A stretch of DNA of 64,000 nucleotides from the NCBI GenBank assembly GCA_054600435.1, contig BAAIJX010000018.1, forward strand, positions 124,001-188,000, given 5' to 3'. The notes beneath the pieces are model-generated. The model did not search any database and had not been told where the DNA came from. It saw only the letters and a list, made by a program, of their open reading frames with translations. Position numbers and translations under genes: made by a program. This document shows, one piece after another, positions 970-51,704 of the stretch (positions are counted from its first letter, which is position 1; each line of letters starts with the position of its first letter). Source of the stretch: Neophaeotheca triangularis. Taxonomy: Eukaryota.

Positions 970-3900
970 CTAGCCGACATCACCGTCAATGACGGCAAGC
1001 CTTTGTTTAACCGTCTTCGCCTTCTTGCTCATACCACCAGCACCCCCCTTCTTCTTCTTCGAAGGTGGCCCGTCGCCAGCGTCGACCGGGGTGGCGGCAC
1101 CTGAAGGTTCATGAGAAGCGTCTGCGAAGTTGCCCTCGCCTATGGGAGAAGAGTCAGTATCAGAGTCCAGTCGAGTTACATGGAGACCTTTGTCCAGCTG
1201 TGACTCACCTTCATGGTACATGTCATCCATGGACATTTCTTTACGCTTGCTGGCCCCACCCGGAGCTTTCCGTTTCTTTCCCTTGCCGCCTTCCTTTGCC
1301 TCTTGCTCCACAACTTCCGCCTCGCGCTTCTCAATCTTCTCCGCCTCATCTTCGTCTGCGAGCCACATGGCAATCTCTTTGGTACGGTTGTTCTCCCTGC
1401 TCCTCGAGTTGAAATCGACGACGTTGCCTTCGCGTGCGGCCTGACCGGATATGACGACACGTTGCACCTCCTCCTTCTGGAGCGCCCGCTTCCGAATGCG
1501 TTCCTCGATGGTACCCCGAGTGATGAGCCTGTAGACGGTAACCTGACGAGTTTGGCCGAGACGATGAGCGCGGTCCATGGCTTGAGAATCGATGGTAGGG
1601 TTCCAGTCCGAGTCGTAGAAGATGACGGTGTCAGCAGAAGTCAAGTTGATGCCCAGACCACCGGCTCGCGTGGATAGTAGGAAGACGAAGATGTCTGGCG
1701 AGCTTTGGAATGCGGCGACGGTGTCGCGACGGTCCTCTAGCTTTGTTGAACCATCCAAGCGACAGTATTTGTAATTACGGTACGTCAAGTACTCCTCCAT
1801 GAGGTCGATCATGCGTGTCATCTGGAAGTAGAGGAGTACGCGATGTCCGCCCTCCTTAAGCTGTCGCAGGAGCTGATCGAGTTTGGCAAGCTTGCCAGAG
1901 TCCGTGACGAAACGACGCATGCTCGGAACTTGTATCTGGGTGTAGCGCTGCTTAGTGGACTCTGGAGCCGGGAGAAGATTCGTCACCGGGTACTTGGAAG
2001 GGGGAATCTTGGACTCGAGGATAGCAGCCTCAGTGGGCAGGTTGATGGGGAAGAGCGCGCGCCGAAGCGGTACGTTGAAATAGATAGTTTCCATCTCTTG
2101 CAACGCGTGAGCACTTGGGCACACCAGCTCAATAGGTGGAGCTGCCGCGGGCTGTTGGAAACAGGTCTCAATGACCCCATACCCGGTTGACTTGAGACTT
2201 TGCTGGGAAACATTGAAAAGGCCGTGAAGGCGACCGGTCTCCATAATCTCTGCGAGTGGCTTTCTATCATGGCGATCCACTATGTTCAGCATGTCGTGCA
2301 GAGGCGTGTAACCGGCATTCTCACGCTCATCATTGTCATCGTAAGCAACCTGAAGTCTCGGCAAATGGCTTTCGGGCTGCTTTGCAAGGTCGATGGCGCG
2401 TTCGATCAAAGATTGGCGCGCAGTGTTGGCAATGTCGCTGCCACTCTTGCCGATGAATCTCAGCCAGGAGAAGGCGCCGCTCCCGGCCGAGTTGTTGGTG
2501 ATGTGTCTTTCGTCCCAGATACTGAGATCAGTGCCTGTGGCCTTGGCGAACCATCCAGCCTTGGAGTTCTGAGGCCCAGCAACGCTGAGATTACCTCCGT
2601 CTTCGGCGAGCATCCTGGGCAACCAGTACTCAATCTGGTTCCGGACCGAGTAACTGACATTGACACTGTGGCCCTCGCGCATGAAGCTCGCCGTCTCAGC
2701 AAAAGCTGTCAGCGAGAGCGGACTCCGAATCTCCGCGCGCTCGAACAAATCCGGGTGATTGCAGACCTTTCTGAATTGCATGACGAGGTTCATCAGCGTG
2801 GCGGTGTCCTGGTCATCACCAACTGCAGCCTTCTCGATAAGATCCATGATGCTAATCTTATTTCGAAGGTTGTTGTAGTAAGCACGTTGCCGGTAGGTAA
2901 GATCGCAGAAGACATCTTCTTCGATCTTGTCGCCGAGTTCCTTCTGAACGTGTTTCTTCACTCGCCGCAGCATGAAGGGCTTCAAGATCATGTGCAAACG
3001 ACGGAGTTGATCCTCGTTGAGCTTTGTGTTGGATTGCGCATGGTTCTCAATGTCCTTTGAGAACCACTCCGAGAACTCATCGTGGCTGTCGAAGAGAGAG
3101 GGCATGATGAAATGCAGCAGAGCCCACAACTCTTGCATGTTGTTTTGGATGGGGGTTCCGGTAAGCAAGAGGCGATTCCGGCAATGAAAGCCGAGCAAAG
3201 ACTTCCAACGGCTCGATTGCGAGGATTTGATTGCTTGCGCTTCATCCAGGATCATGTATTGCCATTTCACCTTCTGGAAGTACGCAGTGTCTTGCACCAC
3301 CAGCTGGTAAGACGTGACGAGCACATGGAAAGGAGAATCGCGGTTGTAAGTAATGTGTTTGCGATCCCAGAACTTCCGCAGCACTTTGCGGTCTTTCGCA
3401 GAGCCCCAGTATGGAAGCACCTTGATATTGGGTACGAAACGGGTAATCTCCTGCTGCCAGTTGTGCAAAGTCGAAGCGGGAGCAATGACGAGAAAAGGCC
3501 CCCATATGTCGTGCACCTCGGCAAGGTAGGCCATGACTGAGATAGACTGCACGGTTTTGCCCAGTCCCATCTCGTCGGCAAGGATGCCGTTGATGCCCTG
3601 CTCGTACAGGTTGACCAGCCAGTTGAGACCTTTGAGCTGATATTCTTTGAGCTGACAATCCAGCATCTTTGGCTGAGGAATGTCCATGCTCTGCAAGGAA
3701 GTGGGGTTCTGGAAGTTGAGTTCGCCTTCTTCGTCCATGGCTTGCTGTGCGCTAGACATGTCTGCATCTTCGTTACCCTGCTTGTCAAATGCGCGGGCGC
3801 GGTCTTGCGCTTCCTGAACGGCGTGTTGTGCGTTTGCCATTGCAGCTTCCTGGAGAGCCGTTTCGTCCTCGGCGTCAAAGTCCAGATCTTCGAAGTTGGT

Positions 3901-6399
3901 GACTTTTGTACCAAGGTTGCCAACACTCTTTCCGACGTCGACGGTGTGCTCCGCGCTCTTGTTCTCCTTGGTAGTCTGTCCACTTGCGTGCACATCACCG
4001 TCAACGCCGTGCTTCTCGATTTCGTCAGTCTTGACTTTCTTCCCAATAAAATGGGAGTAGAGTTCCGTCTGAGAAATCAGAAAGTTGAGCTTTCTCTTTT
4101 GTCTGTTGGCCTCACGCTCGGCTTCTTGTTTGCGAGCCTTGTCGAGTTCCTGGCGCTCGGCAACCTTGCGGCCTTCACGCTCATCACGCTCGTTGCGTTT
4201 CCAGAAGCCCAGCATCTCTCGCATTGCCCTCTTGGCCCTAGCAGCGACGTCCTTGGTGCTCTTGTTGGTCCGCAACTGCCACCTTCTGGCTTCTTTGGCA
4301 GCTAGCTGCGCAGTCTTACGGGCATTGGAATGCTTCGTGTCGAGACTGTTATTCTTGATACGCACGACCTTGGGAATTTGCTTTGCCAAATCGCGCGTGA
4401 TCTGCTCGTAGATCTGGTTGTAGCCCTTGCTCTCGAACTTGGCCATGCCGCTGAGACCAGCAGTAGGCTGAGTGTCGAACTGAGCGGGTGTCATCTCGCT
4501 CAAAGGTTCGGAGTCTTCACGTTCGCGGAGAACTTTGTCCTGAGTACCTGCGTAGCCTTGTAGCCTTTCCTCTTCTTTCGGCGCAAGGGGGGGTAGGTCC
4601 TGCCCAGCATCCATCATGAGCTGACCGCGCATCGCGGCATCCTTTTCGGCCTGCTTTTGCTCTTTACTCTTCCTAGCCCTCCCTGCACCGGCACCAGCGC
4701 CACCTCGTCCACCGCGGCCGCCGCGACCTGCTTTGCCACCAGCGGGAAGCTCCGGGGTTTGCTCTTCAAGCTCGCGCTCTCGCTCCATGAAGCCGCGGCT
4801 ACTGCCTCCGTAAGGGTGGTTGTTGTTACTGTAGAACGAGGTCATCAGGCCACCGTCCATGTTCACCTCCCTTTCGCGCCTGCCAAGTGCAGGGTTCACC
4901 GGCGACTCGCGCAGCGCCTCCTTAGTAGGTATGTTCCCAGTAAGACGGTCCTCGGTATCACGAATCTTCTTATCGTGGCGTTGCAACTCCTTCTCCAGGC
5001 GCACCTTCTCCTCATAGTCGGTGGCATTCCGGAGCTGTTGAACAGCCTGATCGCGCTTCTCTTTCTCATCCGCCAGTGCCTTTTCACGTCGTCTCTTTCG
5101 TTGCTGGTCCTTCTTGCGCTCCTTATCTTCTTCGATTTCTCTCTGGCGAACTTCTTCGGCGACCTCGCTTTCATGTGTATCAATATATGCTGCTCTCTCG
5201 GCCTGAGCCGCGCCGTCGAAGTGGTCGTGCATCTTTTGCATGATGGCAGTTCGTCTACGTTTGCGCTTCATGCTTTCCTGTATGCCGAGTTCTAGCGAAC
5301 GCTTGAGCGATCTGGCAGCCCACTCTGCCTTGGGCACTTCGAGGCCTGGCACATCTTGCTCGACATCGGACAGATCCTTGGCTTGAATCTCGGCATACGC
5401 GGCTTCTGTGTCACGAACAGTGAGACCTGGAGGGCCAGTGGGCGCCTGGACAGACGGACGTCTAGCGTGCCCCGCGGCCTGACGTTGTGTTGGCGTTTGT
5501 GGCGGCAACTTGTGCTCTTTTTCCCCATTTGCTGATTGGTGCGCGGAGCTTCGGCGCTCGACTGGCTCCTCTTTGACACGTGAATTGGATACGCTCGAGG
5601 TGCGGCTCGCCTGGCGGCTATTTGACTTTCGCGGAGGAGCCTGGGGGGGAGTTGCTGCTTTCGCGGGAGGCGGAGGTGGAGGTGGGGGAGCTGAAGTGGT
5701 CTCTGGTACAGTGGAGTCCGAGAGCATGTTCATTACGGACATGGGATTGCTCGCTCGGGTTGGTGGAGGAGGTGGTGGTGGTGGCAGGGCAGACTCCTGA
5801 CTTGCATTGTGCGAATGTGTACCATTGCTTCTACCCTGGTCCATGTAACCGGATGAAGGTCGAGGGTCTGCCGATACTGAAGGGTGAGCATGTGATGGTA
5901 GAGACGGTGATGACTGGCTCGGATGACGACTGATGCCTTGGCGAGGATGTTGTGAGCCGTTCTGGTAGGACTGAGTCGGATGGTTGTATTCAAAGGAGGT
6001 ACGGCCCTGCGAACGGGGAAGGTCAGCGTTTCGGGGAACATTACTTGCGCCGTAAAAGGGCCAAGATACCTGCGCCGGAGAACCAGGCTGGTAAGTTGTG
6101 CCGTTCATGCCTGCGTGCTCATTGGCCGCAGATGTTCTGGCTTCACTCGTGGGATCGTAGTATCCATATGTTGGTCGGTCCCTTACACCGAGTCCGGAGG
6201 AAGAGCGCAGATCACGAGTCGAGTTGGGTGAAGGTGGTTGACTGTGATACTGGTAGTGGTGGCTGGGCGATTGCGGTACGCCGGCGTGTTGGTTGTAGGT
6301 ACCGGAGCCACTTCTGGCATGGCGGTTCTCGATTGGGGTGTAGGTGTAAGAATGACCAGGAGGGCGGCTAGGCGAGTGGTGTTGAGGGTGTCCGTCCAT
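970..6399 (-). CDS. INO80: Chromatin-remodelling ATPase Ino80 (Snf2 family)
   Basis: Has the DBINO region ([19 protein letters not shown]), [12 protein letters not shown], a DEAQ box, a split ATPase with a long insertion and helicase-C ([11 protein letters not shown]). Probable in-frame introns at 6007-6069 and 1140-1208. The ATG at 6399 is a best guess for the start. Confidence 0.96.
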
Positions 6400-20855: not shown

Positions 20856-21938
20856 TCACCCTCCGCTAGATCGTGACCCGCTAGACTCCCCTTGCTTTGC
20901 CAAGCTCCCGCTCCTCCTCCCCATCCTCAAAGCCGCATGCAAATCCAAGTGTTCCGGGTCGCCACTCTTGCTCCAATCCCGGTGCAGAGTGCCGTGATCT
21001 TGCAGTCGCATGTTCTGCGCCGTGATGAAGTCATCCTCAGCCCTCTGTCTCTGAGCCTGCCGCACATCCACAAAATCACCGCGGAAGCCGTCCGACCCGA
21101 GTGTCCCCATACGCTCTAGCTTGTGTTGCTTTAACTTGTCAAGTGCCGTCTTGAAATCGTCAAGGATGATGGTGTCTGTGAGGCACTTGAAGACGAAGGC
21201 AAGCTTCCAAAAAGGATTGACGCCATTTGGGAGATCGGGGTTGGAGAAGGCGTGGGTAACGGCGCAGATGTCAACGATGATGAATCCGAAGCTTACGATC
21301 ATGGACCCCAAAAGTACACCAAACCGCGGTGACACGCGCATGAGCTCCAGAAACCCAAATTCATAACGGGTCTTGATGTTGTACAGTAGATTGCAAATGG
21401 TGAAGATCCACCACGGATCGCGAAACAATGCTTCGTAGGGCCTCGTGTAGCGGAAGAGGTCCGATTTGCCAGAAAAGTAAAGAAAGTTGGCGACTATCTC
21501 CAGGACCCAGTATGGCTGGACGAGCGCCACGGTGGTGATATAGAAGATGCTGGTTTTCCTGCCCAAGAACGGTTTGTTCTTGATCCAGGCAATAACGTTG
21601 TGCAAGCTCCAACTAATGTTGAGCAGAATGGCGGTGGTAGATAGATACCAGTTGTAAACGGGTGGATCAGTGAAGATGAAAGTGCCGTGAAAACAGCCAA
21701 AAAGCAGCTCGACGAGAATCAATTTATGCAAGAGCACGCCACGGCGCATGTTTGCCAGAGTCAGGACGGCCATGATGATCAGGCTCCCGATCATGTAGCC
21801 CTGTGCCCAAGCCTCGATGATTGCGCCGTCGACGGTGTTTGGTTTTCCAACGTCGAAGACATGCCCGCTGCCGCTTTGGCGCGGCTCCAGCGTGACATGT
21901 TCTGGCAGTCCGGCGGAATACAGGGAAGGGGGCGGCAT
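20856..21938 (-). CDS. Fungal multi-pass integral membrane protein of unknown function
   Basis: Uninterrupted ORF from MPPPSLYS with about 6-7 hydrophobic segments (GYMIGSLIIMAVLTLA, LLFGCFHGTFIF, PWWIFTICNLLY, FWKLAFVFKCLTD) and a polar tail. Confidence 0.8.
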   Translation of the reverse strand: MPPPSLYSAGLPEHVTLEPRQSGSGHVFDVGKPNTVDGAIIEAWAQGYMIGSLIIMAVLTLANMRRGVLLHKLILVELLFGCFHGTFIFTDPPVYNWYLSTTAILLNISWSLHNVIAWIKNKPFLGRKTSIFYITTVALVQPYWVLEIVANFLYFSGKSDLFRYTRPYEALFRDPWWIFTICNLLYNIKTRYEFGFLELMRVSPRFGVLLGSMIVSFGFIIVDICAVTHAFSNPDLPNGVNPFWKLAFVFKCLTDTIILDDFKTALDKLKQHKLERMGTLGSDGFRGDFVDVRQAQRQRAEDDFITAQNMRLQDHGTLHRDWSKSGDPEHLDLHAALRMGRRSGSLAKQGESSGSRSSGG

Positions 21939-22270
21939 GGCTGCTTGGGGGCAGCCTGGAGAGGTCTTGACTCGGCCAGATTTACTGGCTGACTGCCGAG
22001 ACACCCTGTAGCATCGCGATTCCAATGTCGCGAGCGCAAGGGAGAGAGGGAGCGAGATGGAAGGTGGTAGTGACAGATTATTAGTAGTAGCAAGTACTGT
22101 AGTTAACGAGAATGAAAACGACCTCGGGAGAGCACGAGGCAAAAGATTGAAGAAAGTGATGAGAGCATGAAATGATGATGATAATAATAAGGGCTAATAA
22201 GGGCCTGTTCGCAAGGTCACCCGTCGACGCCTTCTTCCTCCGACCTTTGCTCGCCCACGCCCCACCCCAT

Positions 22271-22285
22271 TACTACTACTAGTAG

Positions 22286-22317
<32 letters not shown>

Positions 22318-22318
22318 G
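22271..22318. repeat. (TAC)n/(TAG) microsatellite
   Basis: tactactactagtagtactactactactac... Confidence 0.8.
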
Positions 22319-22840
22319 CCTAGCCCGAGCCTTCTTTCCGCAGGCCATCATGGCAGGCCCACGCGGTGCACGCCGTCCCGCCGTCCATATGTGCCCGTTT
22401 AGCCGTGCGGTCAAGTAATAACAACAAAACGTCGACGTCGACCTGGGTTAAATTAACAAATTGGCAGCTTTGGTGGATGCTCGGTGGATGCTAGTGGCAA
22501 TTTGGCCCACGGGGCTTTTAACCGTCTTAGTACTAGCACTGTAGCCGTGCGGCCCGGCTTGTTCCTCCGGCAGATGCTACCTACAGTACTACTAGTAGTA
22601 CTACTAGTAGTACCTAGGTATCTTTCTTCCTCCGTCACGTGCTCAGTCTGATCATTACTCAGCAGCAGCACCGTGTGAGGTCGTTCTATCAACCATTTCT
22701 TCCTGCCCGTCCTCTCCCTTCCCCCTTCCCCTCTCCACGCTCCCATTCTCTCTCATCCACAGCGGGGGGAGGCACGGCCGTGTCAAATTGTCCAGTTGCG
22801 CCAACAGTCCAACACGGCCCACGGGTTCTTAGCAGTGGCA

Positions 22841-22855
22841 TCTATCAAGGTGCTC
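22841..22855 (+). promoter_or_regulatory. Putative ZafA/Zap1 zinc-response motif 1 (TCTATCAAGGTGCTC)
   Basis: 15/15 match to the A. fumigatus ZafA consensus DYYVYCARGGTVYYY (consensus quoted from memory), about 200 bp upstream of the rps29 variant ATG. Confidence 0.7.
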
Positions 22856-22912
22856 CGTTTGCCTCCTTCATACACGTGACCATGGTTGTAGAACAAATGA
22901 GGTGCCTGGCCA

Positions 22913-22927
22913 GCCATCAAGGTGCTG
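22913..22927 (+). promoter_or_regulatory. Putative ZafA/Zap1 zinc-response motif 2 (GCCATCAAGGTGCTG)
   Basis: 14/15 match to the same consensus. It shares the 11-mer ATCAAGGTGCT with motif 1, and a TATATA follows at 22939-22944. Confidence 0.65.
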
Positions 22928-23045
22928 CCAAAGGTGTGTATATACACACACGGTAAGGATTCTTTTCTGGACACCCCCCCCTCTTCCCTCCCACATCCAC
23001 GACACCGACAAGTAAAAACATCACGCCCAAGCAAGACTCTCCACC

Positions 23046-23330
23046 ATGTCGCATGAAAATGTCTGGTACTCGCATCCACGCACATACGGCAAAGGCTCCC
23101 GGGGCTGGTAAGGCGGCCAGGATATTCGGTCACCAGGAAAGACACAGACTTACATCGCCCTAGCCGAGTGACGGGAGACAAGAAGAAAGCTGGTGTGATC
23201 CGCAAGTACGGCTTGAACATGTCGCGCCAGGCGTTCCGAGAGAAGGCTGAGGATATCGGATTCAAGAAGGTAGGATGCAACCAGAGCGTTTCCTACGGTA
23301 CGCGACTGACAGCCCATGAAGTTGCGATAG
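23046..23330 (+). CDS. RPS29: 40S ribosomal protein uS14/S29, Cys-depleted (putative zinc-independent) variant
   Basis: Exons 23046-23107, 23164-23269 and 23322-23330 (an alternative in-frame acceptor would start exon 3 at 23313). Translation: [58 protein letters not shown]. It has a CCACC-ATG context and GTAAGG/GTAGGA donors, and is absent from the ORF track. Confidence 0.92.
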
Positions 23331-48171: not shown

Positions 48172-49369
48172 GCACGATCACCTAGGAAGTCAGGAGCAGA
48201 GTGTGGTGCAAGTGGGTTGGCAAGTGGGGATCGATGTGCATTTCCTACGGTTGCTGAATGATTGCATGGTAGGTGTTCGGCGGTATGGCTTCTGAACGGT
48301 ATAAGCGAAGGCGCTGAAAAAGGGGTCGGGTTTTGAGACGAGTGTAAAGACACAAACAGTCTTGCCGCTTTTGAGTTCTGCAATTTCTTCTTTGTCGTGT
48401 TTGTAGCGTTGGACTTTTAAATTGTGTCCTTGTCTGCAGTAAGCTCCCGTCGACAGTCTATGCCTCCAAGATACCTACCATACGCTTGCTGACAGTATAA
48501 AGATAGGATTACAGAAAAGTGCCGCAGTGTCCGCCAAGAACAGTAGAGCAGCTCTCCCCTGTGTCTCCCAGCACAACAGTTCTCGATTCCAGCCAGCAAG
48601 CAGGCTGCCGAGAGCCAGAGAAAAGGCTGTCGCGCCGTTGCACCCCAAGCGCCCTCTCATTCAGCAAAGGTGCTATCCGCCGAGAGGGGAACCCTATACG
48701 GCCTCATAGAGAGAGCATTCTCATACACTACGGCCTCTGAAAGAGAAAAACACAGCAAGCAGGCCGTCCGGGGCCAAGAAAGGGGCCGTTGCGCTCGAGT
48801 ACCTTGAGGGCCCTCTCGTCCAGCAACGATGCTGTCCGCCGAGAAAGACACGCCTATACGGCCCCTTAGTACGCAGACGCGCATTTGTGATAGCTCCAGT
48901 TGCTGCCTGGGTACCAGCTGCTTCACATGGCCCAGACTTCCTGCCCTGGCGAACAAGTCATTGTGTGGCACCAAAGCGTACCTGGGTCTTCTCGCCCACG
49001 CCTCAGGAGTATGCATGCTTCAGTAGACGGTGCAGAGGAAAAAGTGCCAAGAGATGAGGTTCAAGATTCTTGTCTGAGCTGAGACCATCTGAACCTGAAC
49101 CACCACTGGACCTCGAACGTATGTACCTAGGTAGGTAGGGGTGAGGTCGGGTGACTTACGGAAGATCCCGTTGCTGACGGGAAGTCGTGCCTTCCCTTTC
49201 TGAAAGGAGGCAGTCGCGTGAACGCGCTTGCAAGCCTAGACCGTGTCCCCGACCTCAAATTCAACTTCGAACAACGACCTCGCTCTCTCAACTCCAACCT
49301 CACACCGCCTGAAACTACGACGACATTGCGTTCTGGCTTGCGCCGCACTCAGAAATTCCACTTCCACTT

Positions 49370-51704
49370 AATGGCAGCGCCACGCAGAACTCACAGCCAC
49401 GCGCATCATTCGATACCTGCCACCGCCGGTCGAGAACAACAACTCGAAGCGCCTGGATTTTCCTCCACTACAAACGATACCGCTGCCGTCTTTCAGCAAT
49501 CCCCAATTTCGATGGAGAACAAAGGAGACACATTTGCTACAAGCTTGGCGGATCGCGTAAAAGGTCGACGACGAGGCGCAACAAAGACTCCTGACAAAGA
49601 AAGCGTCCAACACCCGCTCATCTCAACCTTCACCACCTCATGGCAGCGCCCAAAAACAGACACTGGTCAATTTCGCAAGCGAGTGAAGCATCCAACGCCA
49701 GTCGAGAATACCAAAGCTGCCGTCCAACCTCCTCAGAAGCCGAACACGCAAAAGAAACCCAATCGTCGTCGCTCTGCGGGTCAGGACAAACAACACTCAC
49801 CGATGAACACCAGTCCGGTTGAGGTCGTCGAGGGTAGGGACACCTCCCCAGCGACGTCAGAAGCATCGACCATTATTAACCCGGATGTAGCTCAGCACTT
49901 CGGCTTGTCGATAGACAGACACCATGGCAAGCGCACTGCTAGCGACATCTCGCTCTCCACAAACGCTGCTCCGCCACCTAAGAGAGCGAGGCTTGATTCC
50001 ATGCTCCCAAGCGAACAGTTTCCTGCTGCGGAAGACGAGACGCAGAACACAGAGCAAGAGGAACTGAGCGAGCCAGCCTCTTCCCCATTGAGCGAGCTTG
50101 CAGATGAGGAGTTTGCAGAGCTCGAGGAAGCGGAGCTTGCAAGGTCCGAAGAGACACTCGCGAGTGAGGATATGGCTAGGAACACGCTGGAACGCCACTC
50201 TTTCTCTATTCTGGCCGCGTTGGGACAACCGAGTAGGCCAAGCAACACAACGGACTACGTCAGCCCCGACTTCTCACCACTCACACCTGCTGTAGGCTTC
50301 TTTACGGATCCTCCTGCGAGCAGTACACCTGTTGCGCAGGATGCTCTCAATTCCGGGCCAACGCCGAGCTTTGAGGGGCCCCTTCCGAGTGATGCTGCGA
50401 TTCGCGACAGTGTCGCCGCGCTGTGTGCTCCGACTTCGCCGGAAGTGGCCACTGGCACAGAGTTCGAACTCAGAGGCCATTCCAAGCGCATTTTCGAGCT
50501 GAGGAGAAAGGAAGAGATTGAGAACTGGAAGCCAGGAAGCATGGCCGGTCATTCAGAGGTCTCGATCCGCCCGTATCACGATGTCGAGGGGGACACGACG
50601 TTCCGCGACAAGGTCATTGGAGAGCTAGAGCCACAGGCAGTCTCCGAGGTTTCTGACGTGCAGCGCCGCCAAGCGAGACGGATTCTGGAACTCTTGCAGG
50701 TTGCACGGCCACCTGCTGAAGGAGAAGCCAGCTTCTTGAGTGGGCCTGAAGCCTCAGACCGCCTACATCCCGGGGTATTCGACGACTTCCCTATTTTCAC
50801 TGAGTCGCAGCAGCCCAGTCGCTTGCAATCCATCTCCGACTTTCTAGACGAGTTCTACGACGACGATGCGCGAGTCTCGATCCAGGATCCGGCGGCGTAT
50901 GAGACCGACACCGACGAAGGCGCAAAGCGTGCTACTAAGCATGCCTCGAAGAAGAAGAAAGTGCATGCAGTGCGTGAGGTGGCGGTTCGAGAGCTCAAGA
51001 AGCGGTTCGCTTCTCCGCTCAGCGACGGCAAACCTTGGAACTGCTTAGAGCTTGCGACTCCTGCCGACGATGGATACCGCCCTCAGTTTCTCAGCACTGA
51101 GGACTGCCGTCTACTTACCAAGCTCAAGATCCCGGGAGATGGCAAGAAGACGAGCAGGCGAGACTATCACGACGGCTACAAGGAGGTAGAAAAGTGGGCC
51201 TTGCTAGGGCAGGCCGCTCTCACTGAGCCACACCAGGACAGCCACGGTTACTCCACGTACATTACCGTCAACGAGGGCCTCGTCGGCTTCGGTTGGCTGT
51301 CGAACCCAACGGAGCACGAACGTGCCGAATGGGCAGATGACCCTGCGGGTTTCGTTGGCGGTCGCTGGCGCTTCGTGATTGTGAAACCCGGGCAGACCGT
51401 CTACTTCCCCGCTGGTACCGTGCACTTCGTCTTTCGCATGCCGTCCGGAGGCAACACCCTATCATTCGGTGGGCACGTGCTTCGCTGCTCTAACCTCGTC
51501 CACTGGATGAAAGTGCTCCGCGCAGAGAAGGAGAACAGGTTTATCACGAACGAGGACATGGGTCTGCAGCTGGTGCGGAACTATCTGGCTCGCGTAGAGC
51601 GCTTTGTCAAGCAGGGGGAGAAGCAAGGCAAGCTCGACAAATGGGGTGGCGAGGTTGCGGTGCAGGAGTTTTTGGCTCTGAAGAAGGGTTTCATCAAGCG
51701 TTGA
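49370..51704 (+). CDS. JmjC-domain Fe(II)/2-oxoglutarate oxygenase-like protein with long disordered N-terminus
   Basis: PWNCLEL, ALTEPHQDSHG (HxD), PGQTVYFPAGTVHFVF (distal His) and SFGGHVL. The start is uncertain. Confidence 0.8.

Follow-up and report, generated by a model that had tools for sequence, protein, structure and literature searches.

Two copies of a 15-bp element resembling the binding site of ZafA, the zinc-starvation activator of Aspergillus fumigatus, lie in tandem upstream of a cysteine-poor uS14/RPS29 ribosomal protein gene (rps29) in Neophaeotheca triangularis, within a 64,000-nt stretch of DNA (contig BAAIJX010000018.1, positions 124,001 to 188,000 of the forward strand; hereafter the window), and the same element recurs at a similar distance from the start codon in most of the orthologous promoters that we could recover. 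With a probability of roughly 60%, we take these elements to be sites of the Dothideomycete ZafA/Zap1 ortholog, through which a zinc-free uS14 paralog would be induced under zinc starvation. In the following, the canonical four-cysteine, zinc-binding form of uS14 is referred to as C+ and the cysteine-poor one as C-, and sites of the ZafA kind as zinc-response (ZR) motifs.

Paired ZafA-type elements in the rps29 promoter

Direct search of the window located the 11-mer ATCAAGGTGCT in two exact forward-strand copies set 72 bp apart (22844-22854 and 22916-22926), as an earlier note on this DNA had described, and these copies begin 202 and 130 nt 5' of the ATG (23046). The 15-bp ZafA consensus DYYVYCARGGTVYYY was derived from DNase footprints in A. 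fumigatus (PMC6070888, available portion), and the version given in the note, with its CAAGGT-type core, agrees with the published one. Scored against the latter as 15-mers, the distal element TCTATCAAGGTGCTC (22841..22855, + strand, 205 nt 5' of the ATG) matches at 15/15 positions and the proximal element GCCATCAAGGTGCTG (22913..22927, + strand, 133 nt 5' of the ATG) at 14/15, the sole mismatch being its last base; both scores had been claimed beforehand and were reproduced. The proximal element's form, GCCATCAAGGTnCTG, is the one that recurs among the ortholog promoters. Both copies read CAAGGT (22846-22851 and 22918-22923) at the CARGGT hexanucleotide core, which is required for ZafA binding in electrophoretic mobility shift assays (EMSA; PMC6070888), and at -205 and -133 they lie within the ~1.2 kb before the start codon where the same article (section 3.7, heading) places ZR motifs.

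The label originally given to the pair, 'ZafA/Zap1-type', could be kept for its first half and had to be dropped for its second. The zinc-responsive element (ZRE) of yeast, written ACCYYNAAGGT in PMC6070888, is matched in full by neither site (8/11 and 9/11), the AAGGT half alone being intact, and because the yeast palindrome is matched so incompletely we class the window sites as ZafA type and not as yeast Zap1 type. A TATATA (22939..22944, + strand) follows 3' of both elements, 107 nt 5' of the ATG (it had been placed at about 105 nt), and gives way to a C/T-rich tract; we infer a TATA box and a transcription start in its vicinity. In the related assembly X2 both 15-mers are free of differences among the 40 of 48 differences listed, the nearest to them in this set being at 22819, 22829 and 22896.

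Window-wide, ATCAAGGTGCT has three matches against 0.07 expected (0/100 shuffles reached three), with the third copy (3416-3426, - strand) positioned within an INO80-type SNF2 open reading frame (ORF). Perfect matches to DYYVYCARGGTVYYY number three against 0.41 expected, and those with at most one mismatch nine against 3.4 expected (200 first-order Markov simulations). The repetition of an 11-mer was dismissed as evidence by itself, because the window abounds in repeats of this kind: direct repeats of at least 11 nt within 100 bp occur at ~13 separate places.

Conservation of the element in ortholog promoters

A metagenome scan with an alignment of the cysteine-poor protein yielded 80 loci, 38 of the cysteine-poor type, and 32 of these had at least 300 bp of upstream sequence; together with the window they make up 20 distinct promoter groups. 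Five loci were left out for their short upstream regions (L007, 100 bp; L023, 50 bp; L029, 186 bp; L030, 151 bp; L021, 132 bp) and one (L040) as no exon 1 was found in it. The k-mer and density counts were made on 18 groups, to which L006 and L031 were added to reach the 20.

Sites of the CCATCAAGGTnCT type with at most two mismatches were found at -99 to -250 from the ATG, in either orientation, in 16/20 groups, and with at most one mismatch, in the same interval, in 13/20. When all k-mers in the 400 bp before the ATG were counted without bias, ATCAAGGT came out as the top 8-mer (13/18 groups) and CATCAAGGT as the top 9-mer (11/18 groups), the motif being also the top shared k-mer; the conservation upstream of C- rps29 orthologs that one would expect of a functional site was thus recovered by both routes. 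Neither is the motif equally common in other DNA, a concern raised together with the original observation: at most one mismatch allowed, 15 sites occur in the 4.5 kb at -300 to -50 (3.33/kb) versus seven in the remaining 67.9 kb of these loci (0.10/kb), which makes ZR-type sites ~32 times denser in the promoter zone. When hits within +/-1.5 kb were sorted into 250-bp bins, the one from -250 to -1 held 15 of the 20 and those from -1250 to -251 held none. The binomial probability of 12/18 groups carrying the site is ~1e-15, with the background taken from the loci themselves and the groups treated as independent.

Among the 10 clusters whose flanks are less than 50% alike, mean pairwise identity amounts to 0.79 over the 15 motif columns versus 0.27 over 61 flank columns, and with the flanks at random level the motif therefore forms an island of conservation in randomised DNA. 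The 20 tallied sites (16 with a CAAGGT core and four with CAGGGT) read D-C-C-A-T-C-A-A/G-G-G-T-[A/G/T]-C-T-N, and step outside the ZafA consensus only at position 12 (T, in five sites) and position 15 (non-pyrimidines). Across loci they lie on both strands, as an inverted pair in four lineages and as a tandem pair in the window, and this indifference to orientation favours a binding site for a protein over a feature of RNA or coding sequence. The neighbouring genes vary by lineage (VASt, rhomboid, DUF7730, PIG-V, GST and lipin, among the 85/125 locus ORFs scanned, the other 40 either overlapping rps29 or repeating a group already covered) and the gene upstream is often co-oriented with the cysteine-poor rps29; therefore, the site belongs to, and travels with, the latter. 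Taken together, the fit to a motif defined in advance, the promoter position and the conservation across species exceed what chance would be expected to produce.

As for the canonical gene, where the motif was predicted to be absent, no CARGGT core was detected in 1000 bp upstream of RPS29 in one fungal locus (L082, a contaminant contig in the record of a bacterial metagenome-assembled genome, MAG). Seven C+ loci of other eukaryotes and eight cysteine-poor loci of non-Dothideomycete origin, each searched over at most 600 bp before the gene, likewise had no site with two mismatches or fewer; the cysteine-poor ones say nothing on the Dothideomycete case.

Several further features of these promoters were recorded. 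In L008 and L037 (at ~-150 in both) a degenerate second copy, CCATCACGGTTCTC, sits 18 bp downstream of the main CCATCAAGGTTCTC site, and its core, CACGGT, is outside CARGGT; the string CCATCACG is common to 6/18 promoter groups. Two boxes that we assume to be typical of ribosomal protein promoters were considered as well, namely TTAGGG (presumably the Tbf1 box) and CACGTG (presumably the Cbf1 box). Neither TTAGGG nor CCCTAA was found in any of the 18 ortholog promoter groups, and the CACGTG E-box that lies between the two elements of the window (22873..22878, no strand assigned) was rejected as a conserved promoter part, as it occurs within 500 bp upstream in just 4/18 groups. Just downstream of the cysteine-poor rps29, L019 encodes a CXXC_Zn-b_euk protein (PF05907; 2784-3395, - strand; E 8e-18), and L020 holds an ORF matching that gene (3592-4203, - strand); this neighbour is confined to one promoter group and is probably a coincidence.

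The cysteine-poor gene and its canonical paralog

The window's rps29 is made of three forward-strand exons that encode a 58-aa uS14/RPS29 protein, which retains a single zinc cysteine out of four, namely the first. Exon 1 (23046..23107) extends from the start codon to within the codon of this cysteine, and its N-terminal peptide agrees with that of the family. Exon 2 (23164..23269) bears Thr, Ser and Ala in place of Cys 2, 3 and 4 of the zinc knuckle, together with a two-residue insertion, and exon 3 (23322..23330) adds two codons and the stop, behind an intron whose position is common with canonical fungal RPS29. Membership in uS14/S29e is indicated by PF00253, found on relatives, and by a profile comparison with solved uS14 chains, which aligned over the full length (residues 1-58 to 1-56, E 1e-29). 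The exon-2 ratio of nonsynonymous to synonymous differences (pN/pS) is 0.137/0.638 = 0.21 (136 pairs, 17 groups), and the cysteine-poor gene is therefore under purifying selection. With regard to the source of the DNA, the Trm6 ORF of the window matches a protein in NCBI from Neophaeotheca triangularis with 100% identity, and a taxonomy check places this species in the order Neophaeothecales of the Dothideomycetes.

A homology search with a 43-aa window reference of exon 2 (including a few intron-coded residues) returned 92 proteins of the same cysteine-poor type, in genera that include Ramularia, Zymoseptoria, Septoria, Hortaea, Alternaria, Pyrenophora, Parastagonospora, Bipolaris and Neofusicoccum. 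We take all fungal names among the 92 to be Dothideomycete genera, class membership having been looked up in the taxonomy for Neophaeotheca only. The 12 full-length members show a mean column identity of 87%; the first cysteine is invariant in 12/12 aligned relatives, none of which has Cys at the remaining three positions, the replacements across the window and these relatives being Thr/Asn, Ser and Ala/Val for Cys 2, 3 and 4, respectively.

A library-wide search yielded canonical fungal forms, and with one of these as query canonical four-cysteine RPS29 (CRVCTH...CRQCF) was found to coexist with the cysteine-poor form in nine named species (Zopfia rhizophila, Pleomassaria siparia, Paraphaeosphaeria sporulosa, P. 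minitans, Bipolaris maydis, Hortaea werneckii, Pyrenophora tritici-repentis, Parastagonospora nodorum and Salinomyces thailandicus). Assembly X4 likewise holds both on separate contigs, one continuing from the exon as ...CRQCFREKS (canonical) and the other carrying the Ser codon of the cysteine-poor form. The cysteine-depleted rps29 signalled in the earlier note is of a type that, in these relatives, is a true paralog beside canonical RPS29. In the canonical fungal gene of L082 the introns are found at the same places as in the cysteine-poor gene, which points to a duplication at the DNA level. Judged from the sequences at hand, the cysteine-poor protein is an old paralog that spans the Dothideomycetes.

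RPS29 genes with none or some of the four cysteines were encountered in further metagenome contigs, from other eukaryotes (L012/L013, 947-1108 and 3001-3162; L039, 3001-3180; L047-L050; L052), with no cysteine at all in the aligned region of L012/L013 and L039. Eukaryotes seem to have lost the uS14 zinc knuckle on several occasions. Fungal RPS29 genes turned up in records filed as bacteria (L081, L082 and P0276; a Gordonia isolate contig, a Chloroflexota MAG and a Rhodobacteraceae record), and a eucalypt (Corymbia) assembly holds both fungal paralogs (P0026/P0277); all of these look like fungal contamination.

A candidate zinc-responsive switch and its alternatives

We reason that, when zinc is scarce, the ZafA/Zap1 ortholog would bind the CAAGGT-core sites and turn on the cysteine-poor paralog, which would enter new 40S subunits instead of the four-cysteine, zinc-binding uS14, and that the zinc demand of the ribosome would fall as a result. 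Such an arrangement would be a eukaryotic, activator-driven counterpart of the bacterial C+/C- S14 switch controlled by Zur. The choice of zinc as the probable signal stems from the target itself, since it lost exactly its zinc ligands beside a zinc-binding paralog, thereby falling into the class of proteins that bacterial zinc regulators control (PMC13090322, available portion). ZafA is the probable factor because the documented fungal CARGGT-core factors that we found are ZafA, Zap1 and ZapA only, as supported by footprints, EMSA, reporter assays and chromatin immunoprecipitation sequencing (ChIP-seq; available portions of PMC6070888 and PMC13733205). Activation is preferred over repression because the sites lie upstream of the TATA, a location that we infer to be the usual place of an activator and that is the sole basis for this direction of control. 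The earlier note had gone directly to a gene targeted by the zinc-starvation regulator and to zinc-regulated ribosome remodelling; this claim is supported in part, as the checks of the consensus, of conservation and of paralogy all turned out in its favour, direct targeting and remodelling being its putative part.

A broader proposition can be built on this one, namely that Dothideomycetes run a bacterial-style C+/C- switch in which a uS14 paralog, kept since the base of the class, would be activated by Zap1/ZafA via CCATCAAGGTnCT and would replace the zinc-binding uS14, in convergence with the Zur regulon. We hold its chances to be evenly balanced.

A number of observations weigh against the proposed zinc control. 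Four of the 20 promoter groups are without a good site: a core is missing from 504 bp upstream in L001 and from 600 bp in L006, the L032 group has just a poor CAGGGT at -168, and in L038 the site is found only at -397/-401. The coexistence of C+ and C- forms was observed in the nine relatives and X4, and not in the window's own genome, as no second RPS29 contig over the exons was found in its assembly (X1), a gap that in itself proves nothing. The canonical fungal promoter control consists of a single locus. None of the zinc-homeostasis genes looked for (ZIP, CDF, aspf2/pra1, COG0523) is among the 34 window and 85 locus ORFs scanned, and the use of this motif for zinc genes in the class is conjectural. 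The ZafA consensus is degenerate (3456 variants; PMC6070888), and another factor could read the CAAGGT core; in addition, ZafA formally represses some genes with ZR motifs, e.g. zrcA (PMC6070888), which bears on the direction of control. Lastly, as solved yeast 40S structures indicate, a zinc-free uS14 can be an ordinary part of the ribosome with no known zinc regulation, and the loss of a zinc site alone does not imply such regulation.

The alternative that best withstands the evidence, and which we deem possible though rather doubtful, accepts the CCATCAAGGTnCT element as real and assigns it to another factor and another signal (oxidative stress, growth phase, salt or development), the likeness to ZafA sites being coincidental. 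The conservation by itself shows only that some factor binds, and the flanks are tighter than the ZafA consensus demands (the core is preceded by C-C-A-T and followed by C-T, in 16-20 of the 20 sites), which may reflect the specificity of another protein; however, these tight flanks are all inside that consensus. The same reading gains from the lack of a scanned zinc gene on which to see the motif, and from the fact that a cysteine-free protein cannot be oxidised, CxxC ribosomal proteins having been linked to oxidation (PMC13090322). Set against it are the two points already made for the zinc reading, i.e. the identity of the documented CARGGT-core binders and the precise loss of the zinc ligands.

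According to a second, improbable alternative, ZafA would bind the sites without any ribosome swap, either to repress or fine-tune the gene or in support of an extra-ribosomal role of the protein under zinc starvation. The repression of zrcA speaks for it, as does the conjectural nature of the protein's entry into the 40S subunit; it is opposed by the full-length likeness to solved uS14 chains, by purifying selection along exon 2 and by the activator-like placement of the sites upstream of the TATA. Moreover, the uS14 chain modelled in 17 solved structures of the yeast 40S subunit, among them 3j80 (chain d), is cysteine-poor, and a zinc-free uS14 is therefore compatible with a eukaryotic 40S model. 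Chance, i.e. two 11-mer copies merely resembling a degenerate consensus, could draw on the many direct repeats of the window, on the 3456 sequences allowed and on other window matches falling in coding DNA, but is refuted, and thus extremely improbable, by the recurrence of the same element at the same place in the ortholog promoters, between flanks at random level.

Should the induction of the C- paralog by a ZafA/Zap1 ortholog be confirmed, it would give eukaryotes their first described case of ribosome remodelling in response to zinc, and the composition of the fungal ribosome would be seen to respond to metal supply. The novelty would reside in a eukaryotic reconstruction of the bacterial C+/C- switch, with an activator in control, and, equally, in a new and unexpected class of ZafA targets. 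Dothideomycetes include major crop pathogens as well as extremotolerant black yeasts, and the zinc regulon of a class with many plant pathogens would gain a marker gene and a defined motif. In any case, a C+/C- uS14 pair and a conserved candidate regulator site are now precisely defined in a eukaryote, and if the zinc reading fails, a strongly conserved promoter element before a cysteine-free ribosomal paralog still needs an explanation.

Surroundings of the gene and other sites in the window

The upstream neighbour of rps29 is a divergent gene (20859-22193, - strand) for a multi-pass membrane protein without Pfam match, whose start lies ~900 bp from the ZR pair and which may be co-regulated from the common intergenic region. 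Closer to this gene than to rps29 we found a weak ZR-like site with two mismatches (22207..22221, + strand, 839 nt 5' of the rps29 ATG), which is probably not part of the rps29 element. The intergenic region also contains TAC/TAG-type trinucleotide runs (tactactactagtagtac...) at 22270-22320 and 22585-22615. The second of these runs recurs in several more contigs from the source assembly (its depth is 850 versus 128 in the surroundings, and either side shows loose ends) and is a short dispersed repeat upstream of rps29.

Besides the rps29 pair, a single one of the window's consensus matches is intergenic, a perfect one at 48797-48811 (- strand). It reads GCCCTCAAGGTACTC, is situated downstream of a ubiquitin-conjugating enzyme gene and ~350 bp before an 849-aa ORF (49155-51701) with no Pfam match, and could be another candidate target of the regulator.

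Comparison with known systems

The ZR motifs of A. fumigatus (zrfA, zrfB, zrfC/aspf2, zafA and sodC) resemble the window's elements in their CARGGT core and pyrimidine-rich flanks, and in occurring in one to four copies, on either strand, a few hundred bp from the start codon; sites are given, for example, at -75, -105 and -157 of zrfA and at -123 of sodC (with AGCATCAAGGTCCTC; PMC6070888). The weight carried by the core is illustrated by the aspf2-zrfC promoter, in which mutation of three cores lowered reporter expression more than 500-fold (PMC6070888). The known ZafA targets are transporters, ZafA itself, and metabolic and redox genes; unlike in the window, no ribosomal-protein gene is found among them in the available portion of PMC6070888, where the word 'ribosomal' has a single use, for a functional category. 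The Dothideomycete element is also less degenerate than the A. fumigatus consensus, and comes from a different class.

With the ZRE of yeast Zap1 the window shares the AAGGT half-site and, in our proposal, the logic of a zinc-starvation activator, but not the full palindrome. A 2026 paper describes Zap1 as acting chiefly on genes of zinc uptake and homeostasis, mentions only a mild repression of two ribosomal protein genes and names no eukaryotic counterpart of the bacterial switch (PMC13090322, available portion). In the Eurotiomycete T. marneffei, ChIP-seq of PmZapA recovered CARGGT, central in the peaks, in 158/352 of them (PMC13733205, available portion), which supports a conservation of the CARGGT core across Pezizomycotina; the stem 'ribosom' is absent from the main text of that article. 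Our literature search found no ZafA study in Dothideomycetes and no report of a fungal RPS29 that is zinc-regulated or cysteine-poor (one may be contained in the supplementary tables of zinc transcriptome papers), nor, in the literature searched, of a eukaryotic zinc-regulated C+/C- ribosomal-protein switch.

The 3j80-type structures, which we take to be Kluyveromyces lactis 40S complexes, provide the nearest structural parallel to the protein. Chain d of 3j80 has kept the first cysteine like the window's protein, whereas its other three positions are Ser, Asp and Ser and the two-residue insertion is missing, and the cysteine loss in this lineage is probably independent of the Dothideomycete one. 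In the literature searched, nothing was found that ties this uS14 to zinc regulation or to a second, paralogous copy.

Zinc-free ribosomal-protein paralogs placed under a zinc sensor are a textbook adaptation of bacteria, with Zur-controlled C- paralogs of S14, L31 and other proteins in systems of the Bacillus subtilis type. That Zur-type regulators control such paralogs is restated in PMC13090322. The bacterial system and the one outlined here have in common the coexistence of C+ and C- uS14, seen here in relatives of N. triangularis, and a regulator-type site before the C- gene. They differ in gene structure, as the cysteine-poor rps29 is monocistronic with introns, unlike the bacterial Zur-regulated genes, and above all in the proposed mode of control: bacterial Zur is a repressor released at low zinc, whereas here a zinc-finger activator would bind at low zinc. 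If true, the two would represent a convergent regulatory solution, reached by a repressor in bacteria and by an activator in fungi.

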